A stretch of DNA of 64,000 nucleotides, from the IMG/VR virus record IMGVR_UViG_3300003654_000069, positions 1 through 64,000 of that record; one strand, 5' to 3'. Below, piece by piece: positions 975 to 26,970 of this stretch. The notes below the pieces were generated by a model. That model was not told the origin of the DNA and ran no database searches. It saw only the letters and a list, made by a program, of their open reading frames with translations. The position numbers and the translations under genes were made by a program. The number at the start of each line of letters is the position of its first letter. Position 1 is the stretch's first letter. The stretch comes from a virus.

Positions 975-1018
975 GAAGGGCTATCTTGCAATCTGCAGGG
1001 TAGCCCTTCTTTTTTTTT
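975..1018 (+). terminator. rho-independent terminator at the convergence point of the plus- and minus-strand modules
   Basis: A perfect 9-bp stem, GAAGGGCTA (975-983) paired with TAGCCCTTC (1001-1009), is followed by a T9 run (1010-1018). It sits between the plus-strand stop (972) and the minus-strand stop (1017-1019). Confidence 0.8.
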
Positions 1019-10200: not shown

Positions 10201-13200
10201 TTCTAGCGTACTGTGGTTTTTCTGCAGCTTTGTTAAGGGGACCGCCAAACTGACTTTGGGCAAGTTGTTGTTCTCTTACATATGCTCTTACTAAAGGATT
10301 ATTAACAAGATAAACTGCCATCTCTTTTGTTACACCAGCTCTTCCTACCAAATAAGCAAATGTAGGAAGGACATCTAAAGAAATACCTAATCTAAATATC
10401 CACGGATCTTTTGCCACATCCACATAACCGGAAATAAGCTGGGCTTGGTATTCAGGCATTTTATATCCTTTTACATTTCTTAGTCCTGAGACAGATATTA
10501 CCTCATTACCATCATCATCTGTAACGGTATTACTATCCATATATATGGCCTGAATTCTTGCAAATTCTCTATTACCAGCCTTATCCATGAATGTATAACT
10601 CATAGGCTCACCATTATCCATAAACATTGGAGAGGTTGATGCATCTACTGCAGCAATCCCTAAACCTGCCATACCAGAACCAAATGCCTGATGCATATCT
10701 AGATTGAAGAGTTGTTCCATAACACGGGTATGACTGATTTTATCAGTCTTCTCACCATGTACATTCTCTCTAGCATCATATTCCTGAGTAAATTTCTCCA
10801 TTTCTTCTGTAAGCTTGTCATAATGGAATGTACCATTGGCACGAATAAGATCAGCAAAACCTGCAGGATCAAGAAGAATATTCTCCATAGCTAATAGTAA
10901 TTGATTCTCAGCAAATTTTGCCTCATACTCAAGAGCAAAATCTTCATAACTCTTCACTCCCTGTTCTTTTAATATATCTATTATCTCTTCTTCTGTATAA
11001 TTTCCATCATAAGCATCTGGAATTGTTGTTTCTATTAACTCATCCATTTCAGTATCTACTATCCTAATTATCTTACCATCTTCATCCTTAAGGAAATTTA
11101 CTTCAAGTGCTTTATCCCGGAGTCTTTCCCATATTTTTTTCACAGCAATAGGATCATATCCAGCTAGTCTGGGAACCCCATTAATTATGGTTATACTAGG
11201 CATAAGAGTTAATTCCTTATCACCATCAAAGTCAATACCTTTTTTAGCAAGCCATTCGGGAGGACCTATAATTATTGCTCCAGCAAGTTTTGGTAAAAAT
11301 TCATGAACTTGAACTATATCAAATGATGCTTTAGACTGACCTGGAATCCTGGGTGATATGAAACTAATCATTCTACGATTTTCATCATTAGCATACCAAC
11401 CTGGAGCTTGGATAATCTCATTGAGTCTTAATAAGGTTCTGGCAGGTTGACCATCTGGATGCACTAATTTAAGCAGCTTCTGGAAGTCTCCTTGAAGTGC
11501 AATCTTGACTCTCACAGACTGAATCTTTGAGGTATCTGGTTTCTTTACCCAGAAACCTACATTCTTATGTTCTTTTCTCTCAAAACCCTGTTCTTCCAGA
11601 AATTCAGCTATTATACCTTCTCCTGAGACATTATGTGGACTAATAGCATTAGTCTTATTGTCAGCAATGAAAGTCCGTACACCCTGGTATATGGCCTTCT
11701 TAATATGCTTTTTAATAAGTTCTACATCTTTTTCCTGATTTTTTCTTCCTCTTCCTGGAACAGAAATCATTACCTTATCAAACATGTCGTATTTATCTGC
11801 ATTAACAGCATTATCCCCACGAGCCTTTCTAAACTCATCTGCATACTTGATAGTAGAGCTTGAAGGATCATGAGAAACTGCTATAATCTTATCAGCAAAA
11901 TCAGCTTTTACCTGGTCTTTAGGAAACTTGGCACCAATAATTACAGGAGTAACCTGTCTTTCTATTGTTTTAGGATCAATTTCTCGTTCTATATGATAGC
12001 TTGCTAAACCATTACTACCATACCTCATAAGATCTGTAAAGCTTGGCTTCTTAAGTTTGATCTCTCTAACAGCATCTGAACTTTCCATACCAGCCCCAGA
12101 TACAATATTTAAAGGTTCTCCCTTTACTTTCTGTTTAATAAGTCTTCTCTCAACCATTCCTACAATCAGTCTTTCAATATCTGCGGCTGCAGGTGAAAGG
12201 GAAAGATCATGTTGAAGCTTATTCAAAATACCATTAAATTCTACAAAATCTACTTCATGTTCACCAAACTCTCCTCTTTCCAGTTCAGATTTAGCTAATG
12301 CTATAAGCTTCTCTAGATTAACCTTAGCTCCATCGCTGGTACCACTTAAATCTATATTGAGTTGCTTCTTACGAATCTCAGTCAGGTACTTTGCTGCCTT
12401 ACCAAAATCACTATGCTTTATATAGGCAGCGGAAAGCTTTCTTCTAGCTTTATCTGTAGCTTCTTTATCAATTTTACCATCTTTACCTATTACTTCAGTC
12501 TTCTTCCAGGCCTTCCTTTTTTCATCTGTGGTAACATTAGGCTTAAAATCTACAGGAACTCCATCGGACATAAGACCGGTAGTGATAAGTCTTCTCAACT
12601 GGGTAGAAAAACTAACCTTTCGCTTATACTTATCAGGAATAGATACCTGATCCTTGAGATATTCTATATAAACAGGATTCGGAGTAAATTGATAATCATC
12701 GGATGCAAAAGCAGCTATTCTATCTTCTTGATTACTATAGAACAAATCTAGTTCACCATTTTTTCCAATAGATGTAAGCTTCGACCCAGATTGAAATAAT
12801 GCATAATCGATACCTTGGGAAACCATCTTATTATGAAATATTTCCAAATTACCTGTTACAACTCCAGGAATAAGAGGTAAAAGCATCATTTTATGGAATG
12901 ACTGAAGGGGGATTCCTAGTGCTGTTGCAAGAGGACCGAACTCCTGAAGTTTCATTGTAGGAAAGAAATGTTCAGCAGCTTCAGCACTGATTTTCTCACC
13001 TTTGATAACTTTCCAATACATAGTTTCCATTTCATCAGTCCATTCATCAGAACCCATAAGCTTCTTAAGAATTCGATATGTATCAAAAGTTATCCATCCC
13101 TGTCCATCTCCTTCTTTAATACCCAGATAGTTCTTCATCTCAGCTGCAAGTATCTCATCAATTGCTTTCTTGGATAATTTTGCATCTTCCATAGTTTTTA

Positions 13201-16200
13201 CAGAATCTGCATACATTACTCTGGTATATTCTGCAAAATAAATACTATTTAATACAGAATCTTGTAGAACGGCTGACTGTACTATACCAGTCCATCTGAT
13301 ATGTATTGGCTTAAACATTCCTTCAGGGAACCACTTACTATCCATGTAAGGTCTTAATCTATTTTCCTCACCATCCATGCTGTTAATAAATGCTCGGGAA
13401 GCAGCATCATTAAGGAAACCTTTTCCTGTTGCAGGTCCTCCTGTAATACGTTTAATTGCACTTTCAGCTGATTTATACTGGGCAAGATCTCCATAAAAGA
13501 TAGTAAATGTCTCATAATTATGGATCCACATATTAGTAAGATATGCCTCAAATAAAGCTTTCTTATACTGAGGATTTGTGAAATCACCGGATATATGATG
13601 ACCCTGTCTGGCACCTGCACCAACTGATCTTAGAAGCTCTTGCATATTCTCAAGATGGGCACTATTATCAAACCCAAGTTCATTGAATGTTTCAGTAAAT
13701 TGTTTAACTCGATTATCAAAATACTTATCTAGATCTTTTATTATCTTATCCAGAAGATCCTGATTTTCTTTCTGGAGTTGTCCAAAAAGAGGATTATCAT
13801 GGTCATAGTCAGTCATTTTCATAAGCTCATCTTTCGTACTTGGAGAAAGAACATCATGAAAAAACGTGAACTTTTGTCCAGCTATGTAATAAGGAATAAG
13901 TTTACCATTTTTATCTGTAGCTTCTGTTAATGCATCACGTTCCTCTGATCCTACAGGAAGAGCTTTCAAATAATTAATCCTGGCTAGCTCATTGCTTATT
14001 TTGGAAAGAAAGATAATATTTCTTTCTTCTCTACCAGTATCAATAAGGAATTTAACAGGATCTATATAATATTTTCCAGTATGTTTTGTATTAGGTGATA
14101 TACCATTGGCCTTTGTGATCTTAGATACTCCAGACATATATGAAGTAGTTCTGTCAGAAGTTCGGGGTCCTTCAGCCCAACCTCGCTGAAAAAATGTAAT
14201 AAGATCTCCCAAAAACTTAGTAGCCTTATCAGTATCTGCTAAAGCAGATCCAGAAAGATGTATTATATCATTAAAAGTAGTAGCTACACCTGATAGATTT
14301 CCCCATATAAGTTCAACAACTGCAGTACTCTTATCTTTTTCATTAACTTTTCTCCTTTTTTCTGTTATAGGATCAAAAAGCGAGGCCATAATTATACTAT
14401 CTCTGATTAAAGGATTTCTATCTTTTTTGAGATATGACATGAAAGGAAATCTGAAAAAGAGATCATCCTCTGACTCTGAATTATTAATAGCATTGACTTG
14501 TCGTGTATTAGTAGAATGAAGAGCAAACTCATATTGAGTCTTGTTTTCTGCGGTACTGACCATAAAACCAGCAGCAGTATTATGTTGAGCTTCAAGTTCA
14601 GCTAATTTTGTAAAACGACCCTCCCATCCTGTTTTATCTCTAAGTATCTTTTCTCCTGGTATTATTTTTCCTTCAGGTGATATTTTAGGTAGATCTGTGA
14701 TATTATCTCTTTCTTGATACAATTGATTCAAAAAATCTGCTCTTAGGATAGGTTCCTTTTGGTGTATTAATATATTTAACCATCTATAAATGTGAAATAT
14801 CTGATATTTGTTATCACTATCTTTCATTATTTCAGTTTCCACTTCCAACTGTTCAGATAAGTCAATCCCAATAACTCTTAAAAATTCAGGAGATCTTAAT
14901 CTATCCAGTGTATCAACAGTACTATCTTTATCTTTAGGAGCTGCAAATTCCTTTACAACTTCTGCAATATCAAGATATACTATTCCATTAATATCTTTCT
15001 TCATGAACTTATTTCTTCCTAGTACAGGAAAGTCAGTTTGCCATTGACTCTTCATTCTTCTATGACCACCTGAAGTTTTTCCAAATGCAAAATCAAATAT
15101 ATCTACTCCTTTTGTATTTATCTCCTTATTTATAGTAAGTTGATGAAGATAGGTTCTGATCTTATCGAGGGATGCCTGAAAATCCATCCATATAACATTA
15201 ACTATTTTTTTATCACTCTTTCGATCACCAAGTCTTTCTAAGAGTTGTTTATATATATGAGCATCTGGATAATTTGGGTTGTCTCTTCTAACTACCATTC
15301 TATTATATAAAAGCTCTCTATCATTCCCACCAACCAAGTACTTAACAACTCTATTCCATACAAGCATTGGCTCCTCATAATTGAGAAAACCAAATCTGTC
15401 ATAAGCATCAGCCTGATTCTTAGACTTAAAAATGGTTTTCATGAGTACAGCTATCTCAGGAGTAGCAAAGAAGTCCAATGGAATAGTATTACCCTTTCTG
15501 TTAGGATCACTTCTTTCTTTTGCGACAGATGCACTAGTATCAAAATCATCATCTATACCTTCTAATTTCGCTTTATCCTTGGCAGTAAGAAACCGAGTAT
15601 GGTCTCTATGATAAGCAACAATCCCTTTCTTTTTATCTTTCTTAGTAGGATAAAAATTATTTTCAATATAACCCAGAAGATACATATTACGACTTTCACC
15701 AACATTAACTAGTTCTTTAGAAGGAGCTTGTTTGGCAGCTTCCTGCTGTGACATTATAAGCCGGGCAGTATCAATAGTTCTTTCAAGAGGTGAAGCAATA
15801 ATCTCAGGAATTTCTATATCCTTGAATAACTGTCCAATTTCTACAGCTTGCTTAGTACCCTTATCTGTAAGTTGTCCACCAGGAGTACCAAAAGTTTTAG
15901 TTACATTATCTATGGTTTCTCCATGTCTTACAATATGAATAGGACCATTCTTACCCTGAATAATAAAATGTGCTCCTGGTTTGAATGTACCAGCCTGTTT
16001 TACATATGCATTTCTCTGAAGTTGTGTGAATTCAGAAGGGTTCCCCTCTTTATTCCATAGACTAATTAATCCAAATGTTGAACCATGAGTAACAACTACA
16101 GTATGAGCCTTACCATTAGCTACTATATCAGATATAGCAGGAACAATTCTATTGAATGCATGATTGAAAGATTCACCATCAGAGATAATAGGCTTATCAG

Positions 16201-19200
16201 GCTTATTCATTATATTGTCAGCAATAGTCATATTTTTAGCTCTATCTTCTGGTCTTCCTACTTCAGACCCATAATCAAAACCTCTAAAACTATTAACAAG
16301 TTTAAGCTTAGACTTAACACCAGTTCTCATTGTTCTAATTTCATCAAGTACAAGGGTATATATAATTTTTTGGGAAGAAGGTTCTTTCATTAAATGATGC
16401 TCACTTATAAAATGACCTTGTCTTTTTTCCAATACTATGGCTATTTTGGTAATAATTTTATCAAGAAGACCACTTATAGCCTTAGATTCAGTATAATCAA
16501 GATTAACTGCTTCCATCGGATTGCCAGCAGCATCAGTATCAAGACCTTGAATACCTTTACGGAGAATATTGAAGTTCCGGTTACTTATATCAAAGGTAAA
16601 GTCTGAAAGATCACCTATTCTCATCTTTTCGAAAAGCTGATGGATATGTACATTATCAAGAGGACTTGCTATAACATCTTTCATACTAGTACCACCAAAA
16701 AGAGACTTGAGTATATCCCATAACCTTTTAAATATTGATTTTCTGGCTGGTCCTGAAGGGATTTTTTTACCACCAGATAACATATACTTACGGAAATCCT
16801 CTGCAAGCCACTCTTCTAATTGTTCTTCACTGGCTTTATTAAAGGCTACTGTTACACCCTTATAATCAGTAAAACTACCCTGTAATGAACCAGCCTCTTT
16901 ATAAAGTCTTTTCTTTTGTTCTTTAGTCAGGAAAAGCTGAGTGAATCCGTGCCATGACTCATGGTAAAGATCTGAGAAATCTGATCCTTTGAAAAGAACA
17001 ATACCATCAGCAGTCCATTGAGCAACTCCTGAACTGTTAACAATAGTAAACATAACTTCAAAAGGAATAAACTTTGACATAGGATGGTTTGAATACCATT
17101 TCTTGGCATCTTCTATCTGAGCTTTAGTAGCAACTAAGTTAAATGTCTTCTGAAACTTATTCTTATTCCACTTAACTTTGAATATCTCTTCAAGCTTTCT
17201 AAGTGCTGGATCTGTTAAAGGAGCTAGACTGACTGTCTTCTCTTGGGTAGGTACGGTTATATCTATATTAGGAATAGTACCCTTAGCTGCACCTAATGAT
17301 GGGGCACCAAGCATAAAATCGAGAGAGGGGTTTATAGGAGCAATCCCTCTCACACCACCATCGTCATAAGACACAGCATTAGAAAGTGTTTTTGTTGCAA
17401 TCCAATTGACATATGGTATTGCAGGTACTTTTTTAATAGATATTTTGCCATTTTTATCAGTTTCCAGACTAAACTCCTCAATCATTTTTTGGTCACTAAT
17501 AACATTATAAGTCTGGAAATTAGCCCATTTAAGAACAAGTTTTCCATTTGGGTCTTTTACCTCTACAAGCATAAAATCCTTCCCCTGATTTCTTGTTTTA
17601 GCTGCTAGTCTAGGATCACTAATTTTATCAAATAGTCTATTACCAGTTTTTAGATAAATTGCATAGGGAGTATCCTTTCCATCTTTAGTCGTCATTTCTC
17701 TACTAATAGGAACAGCATCTTTACTTATAAATGGATGACTTAGATATTTTATAATTAATTTTTTTGCTTCTTCTTTCTTAACAGCAAGCTCTTCTGGAGC
17801 AATACCGGCAGACTTATAGATATCATGACCCATGTATCTGACAGTAATATTCTTAGTATCATCTGCAAATAATTGCAATCTATCACTACTAAGTAAAAGC
17901 ATTGGTCGAAGAAGTGCTAATTTGGCATGAACAGACATGGGCTCCTTTCCTTTATCATAAATATCATCTACTATAAGACTTGCCCAACTCTCTATGTCTT
18001 CCTGAGTAATATACTTTCTAGTAAGAGGAATTTCTTCATGTACACCAGGAAGAGTTAAATTAATATTCTTTACTTCCTTTAGACCTGGAACAGGTTGAAT
18101 ATCAAAACCTTTAGATAAAGTAACTTTACTAAGATCTTCAAATTCATTTTTCGGAGTCTTGGTAATAATTCCTTGCGAACCTCCTGTTATATGGCCTATT
18201 ATCTTATTACCCTTAAGAGCACCATTATCAGTAGATAGTACATGTTTAGTAACCTGATCACGCTCCTCAGCTTGATCATTAGTAAACTTGGTTGCTTCTT
18301 CTAAGGTAATTTTTGTATATGGTTTTTTTAATGATTTTTTTACAGTTTCATTAGGATTTTCTATACCTGATTTTTCATAGTTAATACTTCCATTTTCATT
18401 TCTATGTACTCCTTTTACAGGAGAATAAAATATTCTACCATTATTTTCATCAGTAAGTTCACGTTTAACATTAAAGTATAATATTACACCATTTTCATCA
18501 GTAGCTACCATAACTACCTTTGTCTTCCAATTTGCCAAGGCAGCAGCATTATCTGTGGCATTACCATTCTCTAAAAATGCTTTATCTTGAGAACTATATT
18601 GCCCTGGAGGAATATTAGTAGCAGCCATTGCTGTATAATACAATCCTGTAGTTCCACCACCAGGTCTGATAAATTTTATATTACGACTATCATTATTATA
18701 TCTTGGATTATCTCTCAGATCATCCAAGATACTTCTCATAAATTTCATGTAGAATCCCATTTCCAGATCAGGAATATTTCTCATTATCTCAGCCCGCTGA
18801 ATACCTCTTGCTTGTTCTAAACTTTTATTATCTTCATCCCTGATTTTAGGAAGAGTTCTATGCTTAGCTTCCTGACCAGTAGTGTGGTTAAGACTTTTAA
18901 GAAGAACAGTACTTTTAATAGGCTTCTTAAATTTTCCTTTCTCTTCAGCCATTCTCTTCTGCTGTCTATCCTGTGCCTGATAAGAAAGTTCTTTACTTAT
19001 CTGCTCGGTTGTTTGAGTAGGTGTACCTTTTTCTAGATAAGTAAGAACATTAGCAATTCCTTTCTCAAGCTCTTTCCCAAACTCTCTTATATGCTTTCCG
19101 AGGGCATTCAGATCAAGACCATTATTTGCTAGATATTCTGCAAGGACTTCATTTGCTTCAGTAGACACAACAAGATTAATTGCCTTAGGAACAACTTGTA

Positions 19201-19366
19201 ATACGGATGCCGCATAGGCATGTTCATCACCTCCAATAACAAGACCCTTATCATACATATCACTAAAGAATTTATCCATAGAAAATTTAGTACCATTTTT
19301 TCTTATAGTATCTAAATTAAGACGAACAAGTTCGTATACATCACTTGGATCAAGAGGACATGCCAT
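7250..19366 (-). CDS. giant (4038 aa) virion-type two-barrel RNA polymerase fusion protein carrying zincin, histidine phosphatase and cpYpsA/SLOG modules
   Basis: Uninterrupted 12.1-kb ORF. It contains a beta-prime-like R-x-P...DFDGD motif plus three accessory enzyme signatures, each listed as a separate feature. Both gene junctions overlap (TAATG at 19364-19368, ATGA at 7250-7253). Confidence 0.85.
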   Translation of the reverse strand: MACPLDPSDVYELVRLNLDTIRKNGTKFSMDKFFSDMYDKGLVIGGDEHAYAASVLQVVPKAINLVVSTEANEVLAEYLANNGLDLNALGKHIREFGKELEKGIANVLTYLEKGTPTQTTEQISKELSYQAQDRQQKRMAEEKGKFKKPIKSTVLLKSLNHTTGQEAKHRTLPKIRDEDNKSLEQARGIQRAEIMRNIPDLEMGFYMKFMRSILDDLRDNPRYNNDSRNIKFIRPGGGTTGLYYTAMAATNIPPGQYSSQDKAFLENGNATDNAAALANWKTKVVMVATDENGVILYFNVKRELTDENNGRIFYSPVKGVHRNENGSINYEKSGIENPNETVKKSLKKPYTKITLEEATKFTNDQAEERDQVTKHVLSTDNGALKGNKIIGHITGGSQGIITKTPKNEFEDLSKVTLSKGFDIQPVPGLKEVKNINLTLPGVHEEIPLTRKYITQEDIESWASLIVDDIYDKGKEPMSVHAKLALLRPMLLLSSDRLQLFADDTKNITVRYMGHDIYKSAGIAPEELAVKKEEAKKLIIKYLSHPFISKDAVPISREMTTKDGKDTPYAIYLKTGNRLFDKISDPRLAAKTRNQGKDFMLVEVKDPNGKLVLKWANFQTYNVISDQKMIEEFSLETDKNGKISIKKVPAIPYVNWIATKTLSNAVSYDDGGVRGIAPINPSLDFMLGAPSLGAAKGTIPNIDITVPTQEKTVSLAPLTDPALRKLEEIFKVKWNKNKFQKTFNLVATKAQIEDAKKWYSNHPMSKFIPFEVMFTIVNSSGVAQWTADGIVLFKGSDFSDLYHESWHGFTQLFLTKEQKKRLYKEAGSLQGSFTDYKGVTVAFNKASEEQLEEWLAEDFRKYMLSGGKKIPSGPARKSIFKRLWDILKSLFGGTSMKDVIASPLDNVHIHQLFEKMRIGDLSDFTFDISNRNFNILRKGIQGLDTDAAGNPMEAVNLDYTESKAISGLLDKIITKIAIVLEKRQGHFISEHHLMKEPSSQKIIYTLVLDEIRTMRTGVKSKLKLVNSFRGFDYGSEVGRPEDRAKNMTIADNIMNKPDKPIISDGESFNHAFNRIVPAISDIVANGKAHTVVVTHGSTFGLISLWNKEGNPSEFTQLQRNAYVKQAGTFKPGAHFIIQGKNGPIHIVRHGETIDNVTKTFGTPGGQLTDKGTKQAVEIGQLFKDIEIPEIIASPLERTIDTARLIMSQQEAAKQAPSKELVNVGESRNMYLLGYIENNFYPTKKDKKKGIVAYHRDHTRFLTAKDKAKLEGIDDDFDTSASVAKERSDPNRKGNTIPLDFFATPEIAVLMKTIFKSKNQADAYDRFGFLNYEEPMLVWNRVVKYLVGGNDRELLYNRMVVRRDNPNYPDAHIYKQLLERLGDRKSDKKIVNVIWMDFQASLDKIRTYLHQLTINKEINTKGVDIFDFAFGKTSGGHRRMKSQWQTDFPVLGRNKFMKKDINGIVYLDIAEVVKEFAAPKDKDSTVDTLDRLRSPEFLRVIGIDLSEQLEVETEIMKDSDNKYQIFHIYRWLNILIHQKEPILRADFLNQLYQERDNITDLPKISPEGKIIPGEKILRDKTGWEGRFTKLAELEAQHNTAAGFMVSTAENKTQYEFALHSTNTRQVNAINNSESEDDLFFRFPFMSYLKKDRNPLIRDSIIMASLFDPITEKRRKVNEKDKSTAVVELIWGNLSGVATTFNDIIHLSGSALADTDKATKFLGDLITFFQRGWAEGPRTSDRTTSYMSGVSKITKANGISPNTKHTGKYYIDPVKFLIDTGREERNIIFLSKISNELARINYLKALPVGSEERDALTEATDKNGKLIPYYIAGQKFTFFHDVLSPSTKDELMKMTDYDHDNPLFGQLQKENQDLLDKIIKDLDKYFDNRVKQFTETFNELGFDNSAHLENMQELLRSVGAGARQGHHISGDFTNPQYKKALFEAYLTNMWIHNYETFTIFYGDLAQYKSAESAIKRITGGPATGKGFLNDAASRAFINSMDGEENRLRPYMDSKWFPEGMFKPIHIRWTGIVQSAVLQDSVLNSIYFAEYTRVMYADSVKTMEDAKLSKKAIDEILAAEMKNYLGIKEGDGQGWITFDTYRILKKLMGSDEWTDEMETMYWKVIKGEKISAEAAEHFFPTMKLQEFGPLATALGIPLQSFHKMMLLPLIPGVVTGNLEIFHNKMVSQGIDYALFQSGSKLTSIGKNGELDLFYSNQEDRIAAFASDDYQFTPNPVYIEYLKDQVSIPDKYKRKVSFSTQLRRLITTGLMSDGVPVDFKPNVTTDEKRKAWKKTEVIGKDGKIDKEATDKARRKLSAAYIKHSDFGKAAKYLTEIRKKQLNIDLSGTSDGAKVNLEKLIALAKSELERGEFGEHEVDFVEFNGILNKLQHDLSLSPAAADIERLIVGMVERRLIKQKVKGEPLNIVSGAGMESSDAVREIKLKKPSFTDLMRYGSNGLASYHIEREIDPKTIERQVTPVIIGAKFPKDQVKADFADKIIAVSHDPSSSTIKYADEFRKARGDNAVNADKYDMFDKVMISVPGRGRKNQEKDVELIKKHIKKAIYQGVRTFIADNKTNAISPHNVSGEGIIAEFLEEQGFERKEHKNVGFWVKKPDTSKIQSVRVKIALQGDFQKLLKLVHPDGQPARTLLRLNEIIQAPGWYANDENRRMISFISPRIPGQSKASFDIVQVHEFLPKLAGAIIIGPPEWLAKKGIDFDGDKELTLMPSITIINGVPRLAGYDPIAVKKIWERLRDKALEVNFLKDEDGKIIRIVDTEMDELIETTIPDAYDGNYTEEEIIDILKEQGVKSYEDFALEYEAKFAENQLLLAMENILLDPAGFADLIRANGTFHYDKLTEEMEKFTQEYDARENVHGEKTDKISHTRVMEQLFNLDMHQAFGSGMAGLGIAAVDASTSPMFMDNGEPMSYTFMDKAGNREFARIQAIYMDSNTVTDDDGNEVISVSGLRNVKGYKMPEYQAQLISGYVDVAKDPWIFRLGISLDVLPTFAYLVGRAGVTKEMAVYLVNNPLVRAYVREQQLAQSQFGGPLNKAAEKPQYARNHARDVMLSDAKYGMTLRYTQPLLDALGKGAQTQLIGQKIIRNTKEIHFMKKEIYMYLRTRRADNPFTEGELLDTLKVFKEKGKKFGQRVEGEELVQPSQTDIDVLLHYFELEDQSSSLTKIKLATRFDAKKSGTMFMAMFRHIKAKQLEQNGRWRPEMVTNIMEDSVMGSYDISEFLAHHLAPLFELSNHPALNNHILKQIEDKKFEEVVEKTYRDMEETIDTMKSDFISYIYQDMLRGFSLDNIKEYKGYNTNTTTSITQIRYLKIGAFVHNDTMYIDKEKIKSDYNLITKPGLGLMPEYRELGLAPLHKNVFESMDEYAHFVIEREHLRSFTSIKDVKDTDEFKRNLERNEKIQKREEGETHAAFDERISILSYEEILRDKALDNIWNTWKVFKNDSSYAKQYQEFKNKYRDTDMADRFPVLDQIVFNQIGVKPGETQLERMDNLRLHDPRMTVDMRNMFHESLLNLMDPRVMKVADDKENMRISEFFRKMPFFNMLQSGMATDNMFAMGRIMPTEKTTVLFMESEMPKYITMLDEISSGKRGTAFIDNFAEMFAWNNRSSNYQYRDRYKQYTINSSNRATLGQTSVEPTILAVTKIISGGQTGGDIGGLEGAKAVGIETGGTAPPNWLSGDKNEKALLESFGLVEGVSDPKTYPKRTMKNVDDSDGTLATLWGTSVGTSKTIGYAQTGKWQHGTGKSSDKGHRPVLVITTKDVNEAAEQLLEFVIKNNIKTLNVAGHREVSHPGIAEFTKNVIIKAFTQQSSQLIPLQGRFIKESFPGVFTYTSSFTDKLSESVKMAEKIMIENPNAIFMYDGLVPGKPVNTKFFGVPGHVWQTAKGPGGETNAIGIPLRVSYYTNQNTAQITDGTEKEFEAHAKRIDAVLDAALAMKNDPVNPKRIVFPEGGMGQALIGADDITGDNLSDKRAVAPGIFAHLSARLLKDFNYLNKNFTSTTEGERILQTSMPLTNQMVRDIKRAACAI
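7922..8419 (-). other. cpYpsA-type SLOG domain (former 'putative molybdenum carrier' family), residues ~3650-3815
   Basis: IISGGQTGGDIGG (SGGQTGGD at nt 8375-8398) ... ETGGTAPPNW ... YPKRTMKNVDDSDGTLATLWG ... LNVAGHREVSHPGI. These match the GGQTG-x-D, RT-x-NV-x-DSDGTL and NVAG-x-RE signature blocks of that family as I remember them. Confidence 0.65.
11219..11362 (-). other. catalytic double-psi beta-barrel of a multisubunit-type RNA polymerase (DFDGD = residues 2712-2716, nt 11219-11233)
   Basis: FISPRIPGQSKASFDIVQVHEFLP...AKKGIDFDGDKELTLMP parallels bacterial beta-prime NRAPTLHRLGIQAFEP...AYNADFDGDQMAVH. R2673 lies 39 residues before the Asp triad. Confidence 0.75.
15752..16300 (-). other. 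histidine phosphatase (PGAM/SixA superfamily) domain, apparently circularly permuted (residues ~1023-1205)
   Basis: C-terminal-half motifs (FDYGSEVG, DGESFNHAFNRI, VVVTHGSTFGLI with H1094 at 16085-16087) come before the N-terminal-half motifs (IVRHGET with R1147-E1150 at 15917-15928, then LTDKGTKQA and SPLERTIDTA). Confidence 0.6.
16877..17149 (-). other. HExxH zincin-like metallopeptidase module (HESWH = residues 802-806, nt 16949-16963)
   Basis: The reverse complement of 16949-16963 is CAT GAG TCA TGG CAC. The context is GVAQWTADGIVLFKGSDFSDLYHESWHGFTQLF. Confidence 0.5.
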
Positions 19367-22300
19367 TATATTTTAGGTTTTGTTGCACAGGTTAATTTAT
19401 CTTTTTTCATTTTTTCTATAATCTGTTGTTCGGTACGTTCACTCTCTTGAGCTTCAGCTCTGGCAACCTTATCAGCTGCGAATGCTGCCAGAGCTGCAAG
19501 ATTATCTTTCATGACCTGGATATCCTCCTCAGATAATGTGATGGGAGCAACTACAGATACTGCAGTGAATGGTTTCAGGAATTTGTCAATCTCAGCTTTA
19601 GTAAAAATAGATATTCCCCTCTTACTTGGAAAGCTTACTTTTATTGTTCCATCCTTTTTCTTTTCGGTAATTATTCCTCTTTCGTTGGTTATTCTACTAA
19701 CTACATATTTTCCTTTTTCATAAGTTGGAACCTTTGAGATTGCAGCTCTTCTCTTATTAAGTAATTCTGTAACCTCTGGTGATGTTATCCCGATCTGCTC
19801 AAGATACCGAGGATTTACTTCCATCAATCTTGTTAGTTCTCTCTCAAAATTTTCAACATTTTCAGTAGCTGCTATATCACTTATAAACCTAGCTCGACCC
19901 TCTTTTACACCAACTTCTTTCTTGGTTACAATATCCTTGAGTGATACTCCGGTAGGAATTTCTGTAACGAAGTTCTCTCCTTTTACCTTAGGTTTATCCT
20001 TGAAAAATCTGGTCTCATCTTCAACTTTCTTTGTGGCAGAAGCCATTGCTTCAGCTGCAGTCTGACCTCTTAACTCAAATGTCTTGGCAAGTTCAACTGT
20101 ATCTTTTGAGAGATATGCCTTATCAGCATGTTCTCTCATGAACCAATTACTTGTAATAACTGTCTTTCCTGCTGCTTTTGCTGCAAATATCTTAATCATT
20201 ACATCCTTAATCATTGCCGAATACTTGACAAAAAGAACCTGACCAGCTTTCTTAGGATCAGTTATTGGCTGGTCATTCATATCAGTAAGAGGAGGTACAT
20301 GTTCAGTCATGAATTTAAACATGATATCATCAGCATCCACTACATTAGCATCAAGAAGATTTGAATAGTCAACTCCTGGAGTTGTATATATAATTTGTGC
20401 CTTGGCAGCAGTTGCAGCTTCACCTGCAGATACCGTACTCGTACCTATACCCATGGTACGGGCATATGTATTCTTTATTTCTTGTCTTCCTGCAGCATTG
20501 AGAGTCTCAGTACCTATACCCGCAAACTTTTTTGTTAGCGTAGGTGGTGCTATTGGGCTAAGTGTGTTATCAGCATATGAAAACCATTTCTTCTGATTCT
20601 GGTCAAATATGTATATAGGCTTGCCTAAGTTGGCTGCCATTTGTACAGTATATGCAGCACCTCCATCAATAATAGGATGAGAAAGAGTATTGGTAACTCC
20701 TGCTACTCCTTTCTTTCCTGGATATACCAGAACTCCGATAGCAAATATTGCATCAGCAGCTTTTACATGAAGATACTCTTTTCTTAGAAGTCTACCTGGA
20801 TGAGTTCTTCCACCAAGTGGCTTTCTATTCAATTGTTTAACTGCTGTCTGATAAGCATCCTCCACTTCGTTTTTATTTTCAGGAGTCATTTCAGGAAGAT
20901 CAAGAGTCTTAACATCATAAACAACTGTTCTACCAACAAGATGTTTACCCTCTTCAGCCCAAGCAGTAGCTGCACCATTAGTATTACCAGTATAAAGGAT
21001 ATGATCAGCTAATCTACGTTTCCTTTCTACAGGTGGTACATCAGTACTAATCGGAAGTTTATTTAGTGCAACAAACTTAGATGTAAGCTTGAGATATTCT
21101 ACCTTTCCCATAACCTTTACTTTTTCAGTAAGAGTTGTTCTTGCATCCTCGAATGTCTTAGTTACGATACCCATTCCCATACCGGTAGCCTTATCAATAA
21201 CTACATATTGCCCGGCATCATTTTTATAAACTGCAAATCCTACACCTTTAAATTCCTGCGCTACCATAGAATCTTTAATAAGAAGATCTTTGGCATAAAC
21301 AAAACCATATCCTTTTTGATTAGATACAGAAACCATTATTCTACGATAACCTCTCTTCCCTTTATTAACATCAGAATCATGAGCAGGCATGTGAACAATT
21401 CCTTTAGGAACACCTGCTGCAGGAGTAACTGGTCCTGCTGCCTTCTCTTTCTTTTCTTTCTTTGCCTGGTCAATTTCTTCCTGGGTTTTCTCCTTTCTGG
21501 CTCTGGTTCTAGGTGCTCCGGGATCTTTCTTCTTCTTTGCTTTTTTAATAGGAATTAACACAGCATCCTTAACTTTGTCAAGTGGAATTACCTCTACTCC
21601 TTTTAGTAATTTTAGTTCAGTAGTTTTTGTATCACCACCTTGATATGCTACTTGTACTGGCATAATACCAAGAGTAGTTACAAATATTGCATTGGTATTG
21701 TTAGCAAGAATTCTATATACAGAAACCTGCTCTTGATGTTTTTGTTTTTTAGATTTACCATATTTTGTACTTTCATATTTATTATTTTTATCACCTTTAT
21801 AATGATCTACAAAATTATTACCTCTCATAGTCTTTGTGTCATAGATACGGAAGATTCCATTATCATCTACAGTAATTAAGTCAATTTCACCAGCTATTCC
21901 TAACTCATCACTAAATACCTTAATACCTTTACCTTCTGGATGACTTATAACACGTTCTCCCCTGGCTTCCATTGCCTCTTTTACTTTCTCGAGTTGTTTT
22001 ATAAAAGCTTCTACTATTTTAATATCATCTGCAATACCATATGAATCAAGAGGTTTTAATGTTCCAGCAAAGAAATCCCGATAAAGATTATCTACTTTCT
22101 TTCCTATAGTAATAGCAGACTTAACTAAGGGTTCCTCTGTATCTATTTCTTCATCTCCTGTATAACTTGTAACTCTGATTAATTTCTTTCTCTGCTCTTC
22201 GGGTAAATGAGCATCTCTCTTATGCATGTAGAACTTTTGATCCTTGGTAAGCTCTAAATCATCACTATTTTTAATAAGTTCTGCTATCTTTTCTTCGATA

Positions 22301-25300
22301 GTCAGTGGAGGACTTATCTTAAATGCTTCTCCACTGACTATCTCAGCAGCCATTCCTGTATCAATATCACCTATCTCACTTGTCATTACATCTTTATACT
22401 CAATTCTTCCTTTTTTTGTTGAATCCTCTGGAACTATCAATTTTAGATAGTCTATTGCTTCACTTTTATTAGAAACATCTACTGCATACTCCTGTTCATT
22501 ATAAGTAAATCGTAAACGATACTCAGTTCCAGCTTTTTCAACATTAGTTACTCTCATCATATAACCAATACGCTTACCACCAACATAGATATCTGTATGA
22601 CCGGTATCAAGAAGAGCATTTAAGTATCTAACTTGGTCACCATAAACACTAAGCTTACTCTGAAAATCACTTAGTCGTTCATTATCAGCGGCCTGTACCT
22701 CTTCATTAATCTCAATCGCATCAATATTGGACAGAACTATAGCTTCTAATGCATCAAACTGGATCTTAAGCTCAGCATAGTCATCAAGAGTTGCCGTATC
22801 AGATTCCAAGGTTGAATTGATAAGAGCTTTGAGTTCAGCAGTTGAAAGATTTTTATAATTATTATCTTTCTGAAACTTACTAAGCCTAGTATCGTTAACC
22901 TCCCATATTTTAATGTAATCCCGAATATAACCTATAGATTTACGGATAATATCCTTAATAATCTTAATGAGTTTCTGAATATGATTCATCTTCCCTTCAA
23001 TTCTCTTAATTCTATGAGTAATGTTTTCTCTATTAATAACAGGCATTAAAGGATCAATCAATAACTTATTATAATAATCAAGCTGATTGGTCATATCAGT
23101 ATGAATAGCTTCCAGTTGCTGAGCTTGATCTTTTAATTCCCGGACTCTATTCTGAATATCATTTAAAAGAACAAACTCTTCATGAACTGCTTCCTTCTGT
23201 GTAACTATTTCCTCAGTTCTTGTTTCTATTCTTTCAGCTGCTGCAATACCTCTTTTTGTCTTAGCGGTTGTGGTTGTACTGATTATGCCTTTAAGTGTAT
23301 TAATTTGATCCTGAATATACTTTATACTCTTAAGAATATAATTAATATCATCCTTACTAAGTTCAATAGTTCCATTAAGAAGTTCATCAAGATAGAGAAG
23401 AGTATCATCTATCCTATCCATGTCAATACCAAGAAGTTCTTTCTGTTTTTCAAGTTCTTCTATCCTCTTGGTAAGAAATGCTACTCCGGCTTGTTTAAGA
23501 GGATTGTTAGCAGCCATAGCTGCCCGTGTAGTAGCTTCTGCTGCAAGTAGACCAGCTGCTTCTGCAGCGGCTCGAGCGGCATCTGAAAATATATCCTCTG
23601 GTGCTTCTGTACGTCCTTTTAGTTTGTTATATTCATCAATAATAATTTTAACTTCAGGTTCCCTTTTCATGAAATCTTGTAAGATATCCTGATTTTCCGG
23701 TGCTAACATATCACCTTCAACCTGGTTCTCCGGAGTTTGTTTTGCATTCCATGCATTGAATGCATCAACTATGAGCTGATATAAATCTTGTGTGGCTTCT
23801 GTATTTCTGATAGCAATAATAGAAGTATCAGTTGTAATCATCTCTTTCTCTCCAATAGGTTCATCTCCTGTCTTCTGTCTTTCAAGGAACTCCTTCAACT
23901 GGGCCAGAACCATCTGAGCAATTTTGTATTTCTCAGAGTTTTTGTCAAGTTCCTTTTCCGAAGCAGTGGCATCCATTAATCTTACATCCATGTCTCCTGT
24001 AAAAAACTTTGGAATATCATCCTTATGAACCAGAACACCCAAATTATGAAGTATCTGGAGAACACCATTTACATCAAGCTTAGTATAGTAAACATTAATG
24101 CCAACTCTAGCAGCTATATCTTTTAATCTATCTTCTTCTTTTAATATTTCTCCATGAATATTGTTTGCATAATTCTCGAAATTAGATGGATCATGTAACC
24201 AGTTTGCAAAACCTGCAAAGCCTGCTCGATCATGTTCAAGTTCTATATAATCTTTGAATTTGGCAAAGGAATCTACTAGATTCTTATCAAGTAGAATTTC
24301 ACCAGCATGAGTAGCTAACAACTTAGCATGTTTGAAATAGGCCTCCTGAAGTTTTTCGTTAATATCATCAAATAAAGGAACATTATCAAATGCCTCAGCC
24401 TGATTTATAGGTTTTGAACGATGTTCTTCAACCTTCTTATTATACTCATCAAGCAAGGTTCTTATTTCATTATGAGAATCTCTTAGCTCTATAGTCTGTT
24501 TAAGATCTTTTTTCTGGTCAGCTGTGTCTCCTCCTAGCTCAATTCTTGCATTCAACTCCTTAATACGACTCATATGCTGCTCCTTATCAAGTATAGAAGT
24601 GAAATCAGTTCCCGCAATCTTAGATGTGCCCATGTTATCCATGAAGGATGAAATTATAGAATGTTGTCTTTTTACAACATCATCAAAAGCATAACCGCCA
24701 TATGCAGCATTCATCTTAGCATTCTCCCATGCATGGTGAGCTATCTCGGCTGCTTTATACTCAGGGGTACCTCGCTTAAATGCAGTCATATCAACAGGAT
24801 TACCCCATCGTGCATCAAATTCATTATACCTATCATGAATATCTTTAGCTCTATCGATTACATCATCAATTCTTTGATGAATAGGCTTATTATCTTTGTT
24901 ACCTGCATAATGTGGATTATTGAATGCCTCCCCTAGTTCTTCTGGCTTAAGTCCCTTTAAATTTTCTAACTCAGTAACAATATGCTCAAAACCACCGTTT
25001 CTAATAACATTATGAAAGTGTGTCCAGTTTGCATCTGTGAGAGCATCTCTTACTCCTTTATAATCATTGGCTCCCTCAGCCATAGTACCATACGTAGCAT
25101 AGTGTTGTTGCTTTACCATATTCTCATCGAGCATACTGAAATACTTTATACCGTGCTTATGAACATAATTGAGAGATGCAAGATAACTATCCACTGATGC
25201 ATTACGAGCAGCTTTATCTGCCTCAAATTGTACTCGATTGGTAGTTGCTTTATATGCTTTAGGAAGAGTATTAAAAAGAATATTCTGAGGAATCTGCAAA

Positions 25301-26970
25301 AAACCTCCCATAAGGAAACCTCCAAGAAATACCTCAAGTCCTTGCTCAGTCATCTGAGCATCCATTCCTTTCTTGAATGATCCCCATATTTGTCTCTTAC
25401 CAGCAAGTGCAGGATCTTCGTAAATATTACGGTAGTAATCTTTAACTCCGACTGCTATAACATCTTGCATACTCTCCTGGAATCCTTCAAAGAAATTAGC
25501 TTTTCCATATCTTAAACCACCTGCAATAATTGCGGTAGGTGACTGTTTCCAATATGCAGCCTTTGTGAACTTCTTGAATCCATCTGCCATTCGTACATAT
25601 CCCTTGGTGGCATCCTTAACAACAGTTTTTCCTGTCTGTCGTGAAAGATTACTAGCTGCTATATTGCCAAACTGGAATCCTTTAAATGCACGACCCAATA
25701 CAATAGAATTAGTAAAATAAATAAATGGCATATTAATAAGAGTCTCCATTTGACCAGCAGTCTGGGCTTTATTATAAATCTTTAATGCAGCATCACCCTC
25801 AGGCATTTTATTATTCTCATTATAATAATCATTAATCCAATCTCGGGTAAGTTCATTAGTTGTAAATCCTCCCTGTAATCTTGACTCTGCAGCTGCTGCA
25901 TTAATCATTCTAAGATCTCTATAAAGAGAACCGGCACCTCTCTGTAATTTGGCAAAATCATTTAGTCTACTGATAGCTGATCCTTCAGTAGCAATACCTC
26001 TTGCAAATGCAGTTGTTTGTTTAAGAGGGTTTAGAAAATGACCAATTCCCCGTACCGAATTCCAAAGATCTCTAGCATCCTTGGGAGTTCTAAGTGTCTT
26101 ATTAATAAGATCATTAGTTCCTGTAAGTCCTTTTACTATTTTGTTCATCATCTGACCACCCATAAGAATATTAGATACTCCCTTAGCTCCCCTGGCCATC
26201 ATCATAGGAAAGGTAGCTCCTGAGCTCATACCTCTCGTAAAAGCTGTAGCCATTAGTAAAACAGCCTCTTCAGCAGCAATTTGACCTATTATACCAACCG
26301 TATATGCGGAATTAGACATGAAATTAATTGCCTTACCACCGAGACCTGGTCTACTTGAAGCAGCAATTCCCATACGTCTTTCCATGCCAGCTGCCATTTC
26401 TCGATCCGGTTCAGCTGTCGGATTAAACCAACCTGTATATAAACTCTTTGCACCAAGACCAGCTAGTCCAGGCCACTGACTTGCCATTCTTTTAAAATCA
26501 TCATACCATGAGCCTTTTTGATTGTAAAGTTTCTCATTATCTCTATATGGAGACCATCCAAGCTTACCATATTGAGGATGCTCATAATACCTATCAAAAT
26601 CAACATCTGCTACTCCAGAGTTAAAAGAATATGCTTTAGCAAATTGATGAGGATCAGCAGCCCAATCAGGATTCTGAATTGTGTTTCTTATTGCATCAGT
26701 AAAACCTTTTGTAGAACTCAATCTTCCTGGTACCGGACCAGTTCCTGAATCACCACCAAGAAAATTGTTAATGGCAAAACTAGAAGGTACTCTTGACTGT
26801 ACCATCTTTAAAGCAGCACTTGCTTTATAAGCATCAGTAAGTCCTCTGGAATCTTCCAATCTTATCTCATTAAGTGATCCTTCGGTATCAATACCAGTAC
26901 TCCTATCAATCTCCCTAAGGTTTTTTACATAGGCAGGATCAGCCAACATTTTTTCCAATGGTGTTGCCAT
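19366..26970 (-). CDS. giant (2534 aa) virion/ejection-type protein with a PD-(D/E)xK nuclease and a SLOG-like domain
   Basis: Uninterrupted 7.6-kb ORF with TAATG overlaps at both ends. The N-terminal third is Gly/Ala/Met-rich and hydrophobic (e.g. FLGGFLMGGFLQIP). It has a long coiled-coil-like middle and a Lys-rich linker (KKAKKKKDPGAPRTRARKEK). Confidence 0.9.
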   Translation of the reverse strand: MATPLEKMLADPAYVKNLREIDRSTGIDTEGSLNEIRLEDSRGLTDAYKASAALKMVQSRVPSSFAINNFLGGDSGTGPVPGRLSSTKGFTDAIRNTIQNPDWAADPHQFAKAYSFNSGVADVDFDRYYEHPQYGKLGWSPYRDNEKLYNQKGSWYDDFKRMASQWPGLAGLGAKSLYTGWFNPTAEPDREMAAGMERRMGIAASSRPGLGGKAINFMSNSAYTVGIIGQIAAEEAVLLMATAFTRGMSSGATFPMMMARGAKGVSNILMGGQMMNKIVKGLTGTNDLINKTLRTPKDARDLWNSVRGIGHFLNPLKQTTAFARGIATEGSAISRLNDFAKLQRGAGSLYRDLRMINAAAAESRLQGGFTTNELTRDWINDYYNENNKMPEGDAALKIYNKAQTAGQMETLINMPFIYFTNSIVLGRAFKGFQFGNIAASNLSRQTGKTVVKDATKGYVRMADGFKKFTKAAYWKQSPTAIIAGGLRYGKANFFEGFQESMQDVIAVGVKDYYRNIYEDPALAGKRQIWGSFKKGMDAQMTEQGLEVFLGGFLMGGFLQIPQNILFNTLPKAYKATTNRVQFEADKAARNASVDSYLASLNYVHKHGIKYFSMLDENMVKQQHYATYGTMAEGANDYKGVRDALTDANWTHFHNVIRNGGFEHIVTELENLKGLKPEELGEAFNNPHYAGNKDNKPIHQRIDDVIDRAKDIHDRYNEFDARWGNPVDMTAFKRGTPEYKAAEIAHHAWENAKMNAAYGGYAFDDVVKRQHSIISSFMDNMGTSKIAGTDFTSILDKEQHMSRIKELNARIELGGDTADQKKDLKQTIELRDSHNEIRTLLDEYNKKVEEHRSKPINQAEAFDNVPLFDDINEKLQEAYFKHAKLLATHAGEILLDKNLVDSFAKFKDYIELEHDRAGFAGFANWLHDPSNFENYANNIHGEILKEEDRLKDIAARVGINVYYTKLDVNGVLQILHNLGVLVHKDDIPKFFTGDMDVRLMDATASEKELDKNSEKYKIAQMVLAQLKEFLERQKTGDEPIGEKEMITTDTSIIAIRNTEATQDLYQLIVDAFNAWNAKQTPENQVEGDMLAPENQDILQDFMKREPEVKIIIDEYNKLKGRTEAPEDIFSDAARAAAEAAGLLAAEATTRAAMAANNPLKQAGVAFLTKRIEELEKQKELLGIDMDRIDDTLLYLDELLNGTIELSKDDINYILKSIKYIQDQINTLKGIISTTTTAKTKRGIAAAERIETRTEEIVTQKEAVHEEFVLLNDIQNRVRELKDQAQQLEAIHTDMTNQLDYYNKLLIDPLMPVINRENITHRIKRIEGKMNHIQKLIKIIKDIIRKSIGYIRDYIKIWEVNDTRLSKFQKDNNYKNLSTAELKALINSTLESDTATLDDYAELKIQFDALEAIVLSNIDAIEINEEVQAADNERLSDFQSKLSVYGDQVRYLNALLDTGHTDIYVGGKRIGYMMRVTNVEKAGTEYRLRFTYNEQEYAVDVSNKSEAIDYLKLIVPEDSTKKGRIEYKDVMTSEIGDIDTGMAAEIVSGEAFKISPPLTIEEKIAELIKNSDDLELTKDQKFYMHKRDAHLPEEQRKKLIRVTSYTGDEEIDTEEPLVKSAITIGKKVDNLYRDFFAGTLKPLDSYGIADDIKIVEAFIKQLEKVKEAMEARGERVISHPEGKGIKVFSDELGIAGEIDLITVDDNGIFRIYDTKTMRGNNFVDHYKGDKNNKYESTKYGKSKKQKHQEQVSVYRILANNTNAIFVTTLGIMPVQVAYQGGDTKTTELKLLKGVEVIPLDKVKDAVLIPIKKAKKKKDPGAPRTRARKEKTQEEIDQAKKEKKEKAAGPVTPAAGVPKGIVHMPAHDSDVNKGKRGYRRIMVSVSNQKGYGFVYAKDLLIKDSMVAQEFKGVGFAVYKNDAGQYVVIDKATGMGMGIVTKTFEDARTTLTEKVKVMGKVEYLKLTSKFVALNKLPISTDVPPVERKRRLADHILYTGNTNGAATAWAEEGKHLVGRTVVYDVKTLDLPEMTPENKNEVEDAYQTAVKQLNRKPLGGRTHPGRLLRKEYLHVKAADAIFAIGVLVYPGKKGVAGVTNTLSHPIIDGGAAYTVQMAANLGKPIYIFDQNQKKWFSYADNTLSPIAPPTLTKKFAGIGTETLNAAGRQEIKNTYARTMGIGTSTVSAGEAATAAKAQIIYTTPGVDYSNLLDANVVDADDIMFKFMTEHVPPLTDMNDQPITDPKKAGQVLFVKYSAMIKDVMIKIFAAKAAGKTVITSNWFMREHADKAYLSKDTVELAKTFELRGQTAAEAMASATKKVEDETRFFKDKPKVKGENFVTEIPTGVSLKDIVTKKEVGVKEGRARFISDIAATENVENFERELTRLMEVNPRYLEQIGITSPEVTELLNKRRAAISKVPTYEKGKYVVSRITNERGIITEKKKDGTIKVSFPSKRGISIFTKAEIDKFLKPFTAVSVVAPITLSEEDIQVMKDNLAALAAFAADKVARAEAQESERTEQQIIEKMKKDKLTCATKPKI
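20585..21018 (-). other. SLOG-like (DprA/YpsA/LOG-type Rossmannoid) domain, residues ~1985-2130
   Basis: ILYTGNTNGAATAWAEEG ... ADAIFAIG ... IDGGAAYTVQMAANLGKPIYIFD. This is the Gly-rich loop, second GG(T/A) loop and terminal 'KP-hydrophobic' strand pattern typical of SLOG domains. Judged by eye only. Confidence 0.4.
21690..22173 (-). other. PD-(D/E)xK (RecB/Cas4-like) nuclease motif set
   Basis: GEIDLITVD (D1697, nt 21880-21882) ... FRIYDTKT (D1711-T-K1713, nt 21832-21840) ... QEQVSVYRIL (QxxxY). Confidence 0.6.

Follow-up and report, generated by a model that had tools for sequence, protein, structure and literature searches.

What is a nuclease doing inside a giant protein whose gene adjoins that of a phage's virion RNA polymerase? 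The question is raised by P0001, a protein of 2534 residues encoded on the minus strand at positions 19366..26970 of a 64,000-nucleotide stretch of viral DNA (hereafter the window; IMG/VR record IMGVR_UViG_3300003654_000069, positions 1 to 64,000); the full viral record is complete at 121,971 bp and has direct terminal repeats. An earlier reading of the letters alone (the sequence-only reading) had described this gene and its nuclease motifs, and a check of the open reading frames (ORFs) found the ATG-initiated frame and the motifs where that reading had put them; a 7.6-kb open frame at 35% G+C cannot be of chance origin. No phages are more abundant in the human gut than those of the order Crassvirales, and we know of no account of how an injected crAss-type polymerase initiates transcription when its template is duplex DNA. 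A nuclease made beforehand and delivered to the cell with the polymerase would be an obvious candidate for a helper in this process or, alternatively, for a host-directed weapon. The explanation that we favor, and that we consider reasonably probable as a whole, is that P0001 is a virion-packaged and injected cargo protein of a crAss-like podovirus, associated with the polymerase and equipped with a nuclease that processes DNA ends. (Features described below are on the minus strand of the window unless stated otherwise.)

The nuclease domain spans residues ~1553-1800 (21571..22314) and is of the RecB/Cas4/MGME1 type of PD-(D/E)xK nuclease. Its motif I is a helix (22069..22104) in which G1623, D1627, R1631, D1632, F1633, and F1634 are kept in 70-77 of 86 homologues, the remainder being mostly gaps. 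Motifs II and III (21829..21891) are AGEID, which contains D1697, and YDTKT, which contains D1711 and K1713, and they are invariant in 81-82 of the 86; motif IV (QxxxY, from Q1748 to Y1752; 21715..21729) is invariant in 82. Because these five catalytic residues do not vary, gaps apart, among homologues that are 35-50% identical, purifying selection on catalysis is indicated, and the copy in P0001 retains all 18 of the 18 columns that are conserved in the family. The sequence-only reading had presented GEIDLI (starting at residue 1694), YDTKT (1710), and QEQVSVY (1746) as a complete motif set in canonical order. The set is complete and in order, with one correction: the glutamine of QxxxY is Q1748 and not Q1746, which varies among homologues.

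An exhaustive phmmer search with residues 1500-2250 as the query yielded 956 representative proteins at E <= 1e-3 (462 of them at E <= 1e-10), and the matches split into two independent domain families, one corresponding to the nuclease (domain A) and the other to a SLOG-like domain (domain B), to which we return below. The nuclease domain was matched by PHROG 298 ("exonuclease") with an E value of 0.002. A search with PDDEXK profiles, as the sequence-only reading had proposed, gave a mixed result: Pfam PDDEXK_1 (PF12705) matched the P0001 domain with an E value of 8.5e-4 and 19.8 bits, which is below the gathering cut-off of 22 bits, and it matched 9 of 12 relatives, the best with an E value of 3e-6. 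A Pfam scan of the whole protein returned no match, the nuclease being seen once the domain was scanned alone. By fold and motifs the domain belongs to the PD-(D/E)xK superfamily, without being a formal member of the Pfam family. When residues 1500-2250 were compared with the sequences of solved structures, only chance matches to Hsp20 proteins were obtained.

We obtained AF2 models of two domains, the nuclease and the SLOG-like domain. The nuclease model, based on an alignment of 12 sequences, had a predicted local distance difference test score (pLDDT) of 89.3. Comparison with known structures by VIA returned MGME1 with a Z score of 11.0 (root-mean-square deviation [rmsd] of 4.1 over 166 residues), followed by AddA (10.5), Cas4 (10.2), AdnA (10.1), Dna2 (9.2), RecE (9.0), RecB (8.6), Exo5 (7.9), and lambda exonuclease (7.0). 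Thirty-five chains had Z >= 8, and among the 50 matches listed all of these were nucleases of the RecB/Cas4-like branch, the same branch that supplied the top matches in Foldseek. The sequence-only reading had staked its assignment on the conservation of the catalytic residues among homologues and on a restriction-endonuclease-like fold, and both were found. We conclude from the invariant motifs and from a modeled fold with a Z score of ~11 to enzymes of the RecB/Cas4/MGME1 type that the domain is a genuine PD-(D/E)xK nuclease of that type, with a predicted activity. The likeness to RecB/AddA/AdnA, Cas4, MGME1, Dna2, RecE, and lambda exonuclease is one of fold (Z 9-11 over 140-180 residues) and of the four-motif catalytic set, including QxxxY; however, the P0001 domain is only 8-15% identical in sequence to these enzymes and is embedded in a putatively injected protein of 2534 residues.

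An Fe-S cluster is a feature of Cas4, AddB, Dna2, and Exo5 that the P0001 domain lacks. The domain has no cysteines, the single cysteine among the 2534 residues (C2528) lying outside it, so a cluster is impossible, and Cas4 in the strict sense, which requires four cysteines for its cluster, was rejected as an identity for the domain. The structural relatives of the domain (MGME1, AddA, Cas4, Dna2, RecE, and others) have DNA ends or single-stranded DNA (ssDNA) as their substrates, and to judge from its model the domain is unlike a sequence-specific restriction enzyme. This softens a puzzle that the sequence-only reading had raised, namely, how the phage's own DNA is spared: the relatives are end-dependent or ssDNA nucleases rather than enzymes of the restriction type, and the target may be an end of the phage's own DNA.

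How is the domain distributed among related phages? When viral contigs were scanned with the alignment of the nuclease, 26 loci were retrieved, and their gene content was determined by local BLASTP. In 13 of them (L005, L007, L008, L010-L013, L015-L017, and L019, together with L018 and L022, which are cut by contig ends) we found the gene order of the window, that is, a gene like that for a 1356-residue protein, a gene like that for a 957-residue protein, a P0001-like gene, and a gene for a P0002-like polymerase. The 957-residue protein is the upstream neighbor of P0001 (26970..29843), a cargo-block protein that is syntenic in the 13 related contigs. P0002 is the downstream neighbor (4038 residues; 7250..19366), and its DFDGD and HExxH motifs, its His-phosphatase domain, and its canonical cpYpsA SLOG domain (residues 3655-3813, window 7922-8419) identify it as the fusion form of two-barrel virion RNA polymerase that is characteristic of crAss-like phages. 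The syntenic orthologues of P0001 are 1809-2238 residues in length and contain an N-terminal module, a coiled coil, and the nuclease; the SLOG-like domain and C terminus of P0001 were present in none of the 13. The order of coiled coil and nuclease is swapped in L005 (6929-12406) and L013 (6929-12418) relative to L007 (4682-11383) and others, an arrangement that indicates domain shuffling within what appears to be one orthologous gene.

Linkage between the nuclease and the polymerase extends to fusion. At L024, L025, and L029 a single reading frame encodes both the nuclease and the polymerase core, and the nuclease is likewise fused into the polymerase polypeptide in P0015, P0139, and P0140. 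Among the best 150 of the 956 representatives, domain A was present in 83 and domain B in 67, and both were present in P0083 alone besides P0001; in this same set a polymerase core was detectably fused in three of the A-bearing and eight of the B-bearing proteins. All 48 records of deposited phages in which the nuclease domain was found belong to Crassvirales. As judged from these comparisons, the nuclease domain is a mobile module that has repeatedly been fused to virion polymerases.

The nuclease domain also occurs, with its motifs intact, in two proteins of known phages: gp47 of the cultivable phage crAss001 (2341 residues, "putative RNA-polymerase subunit"), in which it occupies residues 1711-1868, and gp057 of IAS virus. 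These domains are homologous to that of P0001 (~30-33% identity, E 2e-17 to 4e-19) and keep the D, DxK, and QxxxY motifs. Both proteins are giants encoded beside a two-barrel polymerase gene and after cargo genes, as is P0001, whose gene adjoins a gene for a polymerase with the DxDxD signature (DFDGD in P0002). P0001 differs from gp47 and gp057 in having an N-terminal module of its own as well as the SLOG-like domain and an orphan C terminus, and full-length homology of P0001 to either protein was not found. The gp47 protein has been detected in crAss001 virions by mass spectrometry, and partial unfolding has been proposed for its ejection (Bayfield et al. 2023, PMC10172136). By analogy, P0001 is very probably a virion component that is injected alongside the RNA polymerase of the phage. 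The suggestion of the sequence-only reading that the nuclease travels with the genome thus draws support from gene context and from the presence of gp47 in virions.

The presence of a PDDEXK domain in giant proteins of the transcription block of some crAss-like phages was reported previously (Yutin et al. 2021, PMC7886860) and repeated in a review (PMC10136315), and in this respect P0001 is a further member of a published group. What we add is a defined set of catalytic residues that is invariant across a large family (956 representatives match one or both of the domains), evidence that the nuclease domain is mobile and has been fused repeatedly to virion polymerases, and a second mobile module, of the SLOG type, which is also found in an N4-like virion polymerase and which is decaying here beside an intact domain of paralogous function. 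Moreover, since crAss001 is cultivable and carries the same nuclease domain in gp47, the hypothesis is directly testable.

P0001 can also be placed among the polyvalent proteins as defined by Iyer, Burroughs, Anand, de Souza, and Aravind (2017, PMC5512222), who counted the N4-like virion polymerase among the phage-only modules. Such proteins combine disparate domains in one giant polypeptide, are encoded in a setting of virion genes, and are expected to be injected with the DNA. P0001, with a nuclease, a SLOG-like domain, an N-terminal module, and a coiled coil recognizable in a single polypeptide encoded among virion genes, is of this kind, and we class it, as the product of a distant crAss-like podovirus, with the polyvalent proteins of Iyer et al. 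Term searches of their article returned no passage on a nuclease or SLOG-like domain.

How might the nuclease serve the polymerase? The two-barrel virion polymerase gp66 of phage phi14:2 transcribes ssDNA and denatured DNA efficiently, is weak on the native phi14:2 genome, and shows no activity on duplex M13 DNA, and the products of the genes adjoining that for gp66 are virion proteins (Drobysheva et al., preprint 10.1101/2020.03.07.982082). In the scheme that we favor, P0001 would leave the capsid in a partly unfolded state, ahead of or together with the DNA, as proposed for gp47 of crAss001, and in the first minutes of infection its nuclease would act as a Mg2+-dependent, DNA-end-dependent exonuclease or as an ssDNA nuclease. 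The likeliest substrate would be the phage genome end that enters the cell, where resection would expose ssDNA, a far better template than duplex DNA for two-barrel virion polymerases, or would ready the direct terminal repeats for annealing. We favor the end of the phage genome as the substrate because the nuclease is recurrently linked or fused to two-barrel polymerases, because the domain is restricted to crAss-like phages among deposited genomes, because all of its structural relatives are end-dependent, and because separate stand-alone nucleases are available for replication and recombination. In its most specific form, this scheme would make the co-injected nuclease the missing template-preparation factor of crAss-type virion polymerases, one that resects the first-entering end into ssDNA. 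Such a role would explain why the nuclease has repeatedly been linked or fused to the polymerase, and we offer it as a speculative proposal that is doubtful as it stands.

Several considerations weigh against the idea of a polymerase-associated, end-processing cargo protein. The case for the packaging of P0001 consists of gene context and of the analogy with gp47, and the similarity to gp47 and gp057 is limited to the nuclease domain, a profile of the N-terminal module having no match in those loci. The domain is present in the transcription block of only some crAss-like phages (Yutin et al. 2021, PMC7886860), so it is not generally required for the function of the virion polymerase. Nuclease and polymerase could be linked because they are packaged together and not because they function together, and a host-directed arsenal would be an equally good fit for the modules of the neighboring cargo proteins (ART-like, phosphatase, and SLOG). 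Finally, the contig ends of an assembly with direct terminal repeats are silent on which end of the genome enters first.

The alternative that survives best is that the injected nuclease is a host-directed weapon, which would degrade chromosomal DNA, plasmids, the DNA of competing phages, or ends generated by defense systems and would thereby contribute to host shut-off or counter-defense. Counter-defense enzymes have been proposed for polyvalent injected proteins (PMC5512222), the neighboring giants contain ART-PolyVal-like, His-phosphatase, and cpYpsA modules, and the nuclease is a mobile module that appears in many giant proteins and also as a small stand-alone protein. However, the close structural relatives of the domain all need a free DNA end, which an intact circular chromosome does not offer, and few copies of the cargo would enter each cell. 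Nor would a weapon account for the tight and recurrent linkage or fusion of the domain to the virion polymerase, and a partner that confers immunity or modifies DNA was neither sought nor found. We therefore consider this alternative unlikely and prefer the reading in which the nuclease processes an end of the phage genome.

The second recognizable enzyme-like domain of P0001 is a Rossmannoid domain of the SLOG superfamily at residues ~1987-2180 (20431..21012), closest to cpYpsA and degenerate. Its AF2 model had a pLDDT of 87.3, and VIA matched it to 3IMK_A, of the cpYpsA family, with a Z score of 11.9 (rmsd of 3.0, 127 of 158 residues). The next matches were all members of the SLOG superfamily: DprA (6.1), YpsA (5.8), ShosA (5.7), and a LOG-type protein (5.7). 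At the level of the modeled fold, the SLOG-like assignment made by the sequence-only reading is correct. It took the wide VIA search to reveal this relationship; Foldseek against the PDB returned nothing at E <= 0.001 (3IMK had an E value of 0.49), and Pfam PF12694 did not match the domain at E <= 1. Likewise, BLASTP of the domain against the canonical cpYpsA of P0002 gave no significant result, and hhalign assigned the pair a probability of 1.5%. The kinship to cpYpsA is visible only by structure, as modeled.

What found no support was the notion of an active SLOG enzyme. The consensus of the family contains SGGAxGxD...W, LVRRDxLQ, and GGTGYAVQMA, for which the counterparts in P0001 are TGNTNGAATAW, LLRKEYLH, and GGAAYTVQMA. 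Thus, the glycine-rich loop of P0001 reads TGNTNGAA instead of SGGAxGxD, and GGAAY replaces GGTGY. The substitutions relative to the consensus are D2001A, R2064K, Q2068H, T2105A, G2106A, A2108T, and A2164E; at position 2068 the residue is glutamine in 68 of 68 relatives and histidine in P0001. In all, 28 of the 39 conserved columns survive in the P0001 copy (0.72), fewer than in any of 64 relatives (mean 0.95, minimum 0.79, or ~31 of 39). PHROG 768 ("DprA-like") matched 14 of 17 members of the family, the P0001 copy excepted. In the AF2 model the lost aspartate lies at the start of the helix that follows strand 1, and the lost threonine and glycine lie at the start of the helix that follows the GG turn. 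Both positions are classical ligand loops of Rossmannoid SLOG domains. Thus, the P0001 copy resembles cpYpsA (PF12694; 3IMK) in its Rossmannoid fold but lacks the aspartate of the glycine-rich loop and the threonine and glycine of the GGTG motif. Because near-invariant residues of the family have been lost (D2001A, Q2068H, T2105A, and G2106A), the copy is probably inactive and, to judge from the model, probably no longer binds or processes a nucleotide ligand. It could be a relic or a binding module, and the intact cpYpsA of the neighboring polymerase protein would probably perform the nucleotide-directed task.

Domain B is also found elsewhere. In the N4-like virion RNA polymerase of Klebsiella phage Pylas (NC_049444, locus L002) a canonical copy occupies residues 982-1159, and in P0148, a 4065-residue polymerase fusion like P0002, domain B, which escapes Pfam, occupies residues 3705-3912, where P0002 has its canonical cpYpsA. 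From these positions, domain B and canonical cpYpsA look like interchangeable SLOG modules. In addition, the SLOG-like fold is represented in BFVD by giant proteins of two uncultured crAss-like phages, cr130_1 and cr272_1. We note that domain B of Pylas apparently lies between the N-terminal region and the polymerase part of the enzyme, and that a term search of a recent article on the structure of the N4 virion RNA polymerase did not find the word SLOG.

The decay of the SLOG-like domain shows that modules of this protein can lose activity, and this bears on a further alternative, in which P0001 has a structural or assembly role only and the nuclease fold serves as a DNA-binding or packaging module, anchoring a genome end or the polymerase without cleavage in vivo. 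The lysine- and arginine-rich linker that follows the nuclease (residues 1809-1845, 43% K+R; 21436..21546), which the sequence-only reading had recognized, is suggestive of DNA binding and would suit such a role. The nuclease, however, has not shared the fate of its neighbor: its five catalytic residues and motif I are invariant in 81-82 of the 86 homologues, and no conserved column has been lost. A structural role without catalysis thus seems quite improbable, and the reading in which the nuclease cleaves is to be preferred.

The N-terminal part of P0001 is a conserved module of residues ~60-950 (24121..26793), recognized by shared homology with P0003, P0004, P0086, P0024, P0009, and the orthologues of L005-L022 (25-33% identity). 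Of its positions, 71 are retained by 12 or more of 13 sequences; many of these are polar or charged, and they include R127, Y128, D144-N145-E146, E234-E235, N492, E495, Q498, E499, Q502, and Q539/E546. As judged from the alignment, the polar clusters look like a binding or active site, belonging to a domain not previously described. No relative of the module was found in Pfam, the PDB, or PHROG, a profile search of the PDB having given chance matches only; Pfam scans of four of its homologues returned nothing useful, and its profile did not match the ORFs of the crAss001, IAS, and Pylas loci at E <= 10. Matches in the ESM Atlas were to viral hypothetical proteins, with faint leads to LPD22 and LPD14.

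The sequence-only reading had likened this region to membrane-active tape-measure or ejectosome proteins. The first 600 residues are moderately rich in glycine, alanine, and methionine (fractions of 0.21-0.36 per 100 residues, with 0.36 at residues 201-300), and two stretches, at residues 225-243 and 547-565, are mildly hydrophobic. The former is the most hydrophobic 19-mer of P0001, with a Kyte-Doolittle mean of 1.49, and it holds two near-invariant glutamates, E234-E235, which are invariant in six sequences; no 19-mer of the protein exceeds a mean of 1.5, and P0001 contains no membrane-grade hydrophobic helix. Thus, although this composition and the position of the gene after those for cargo proteins (one of which, in crAss001, is the transmembrane protein C1) could be taken to point to a membrane-active, ejectosome- or tape-measure-like conduit with enzymatic passengers, the shortage of hydrophobic segments, the many conserved polar and charged positions, which are seen more typically in enzymes or specific binding domains, and the lack of similarity to known ejection proteins in the PDB, Pfam, and PHROGs make such a conduit very unlikely.

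A coiled-coil segment, shared with P0003, P0024, and the syntenic orthologues, extends over residues ~1163-1460 (22591..23484), with significant heptad periodicity confined to residues ~1163-1372. The "coiled-coil body" of the sequence-only reading is therefore real in these heptads but amounts to ~200-300 residues and not to most of the protein. Beyond the nuclease and the linker is a small domain (residues ~1857-1985; 21016..21402), the sole local relative of which is a stretch of P0088. The motif YGG...LPK[YFHA]Q was not found in P0001. The C-terminal region (345 residues, 2190-2534; 19369..20403) has no detectable relatives, either among proteins of 1393-4435 residues or among the 150 domain-bearing representatives. 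In the ESM Atlas its scores were below 0.8, with a faint lead to clusters labeled "deoxynucleoside kinase domain" (0.79), and no Walker A motif is visible.

The setting of the gene is that of a virion gene block. Read from ~64 kb toward 1 kb, the minus strand of the window encodes the portal protein (62238-63962), the major capsid protein (59256-60881), and tail proteins, followed by a train of giant genes, the products of which are, in order, 1704, 1578, 1108, 1356, 957, 2534, 4038, and 2078 residues in length. The nearest deposited relatives of the major capsid protein are those of Leptolyngbya phage Lbo-JY46, crAss-like phages, and Cellulophaga phages. The ATG of P0001 overlaps the TAA of the gene for the 957-residue protein, and the TAA of P0001 overlaps the ATG of the gene for the 4038-residue protein. 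Both junctions (26968-26972 and 19364-19368) read TAATGGCA, that is, TAATG with a one-nucleotide overlap of stop and start codons, and the proteins that follow them both begin with Met-Ala. This arrangement suggests that the three genes are translationally coupled.

Finally, we note two features of the phage that lie beyond P0001 and its polymerase neighbor. The 2078-residue protein encoded past the polymerase gene (1017-7253) has a sub-threshold match to ART-PolyVal (PF18760, E 4e-4, residues 109-232), and it may be a further polyvalent cargo protein. Outside the window, the record contains two stand-alone PDDEXK_1 genes, at 116016-116759 on the plus strand and at 68102-68422 on the minus strand, with scores of 24.9 and 23.7 bits, respectively, above the Pfam cut-off. 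With the copy in the cargo protein, the phage thus holds three PD-(D/E)xK nucleases, as Yutin et al. (2021) described for some crAss-like phages.

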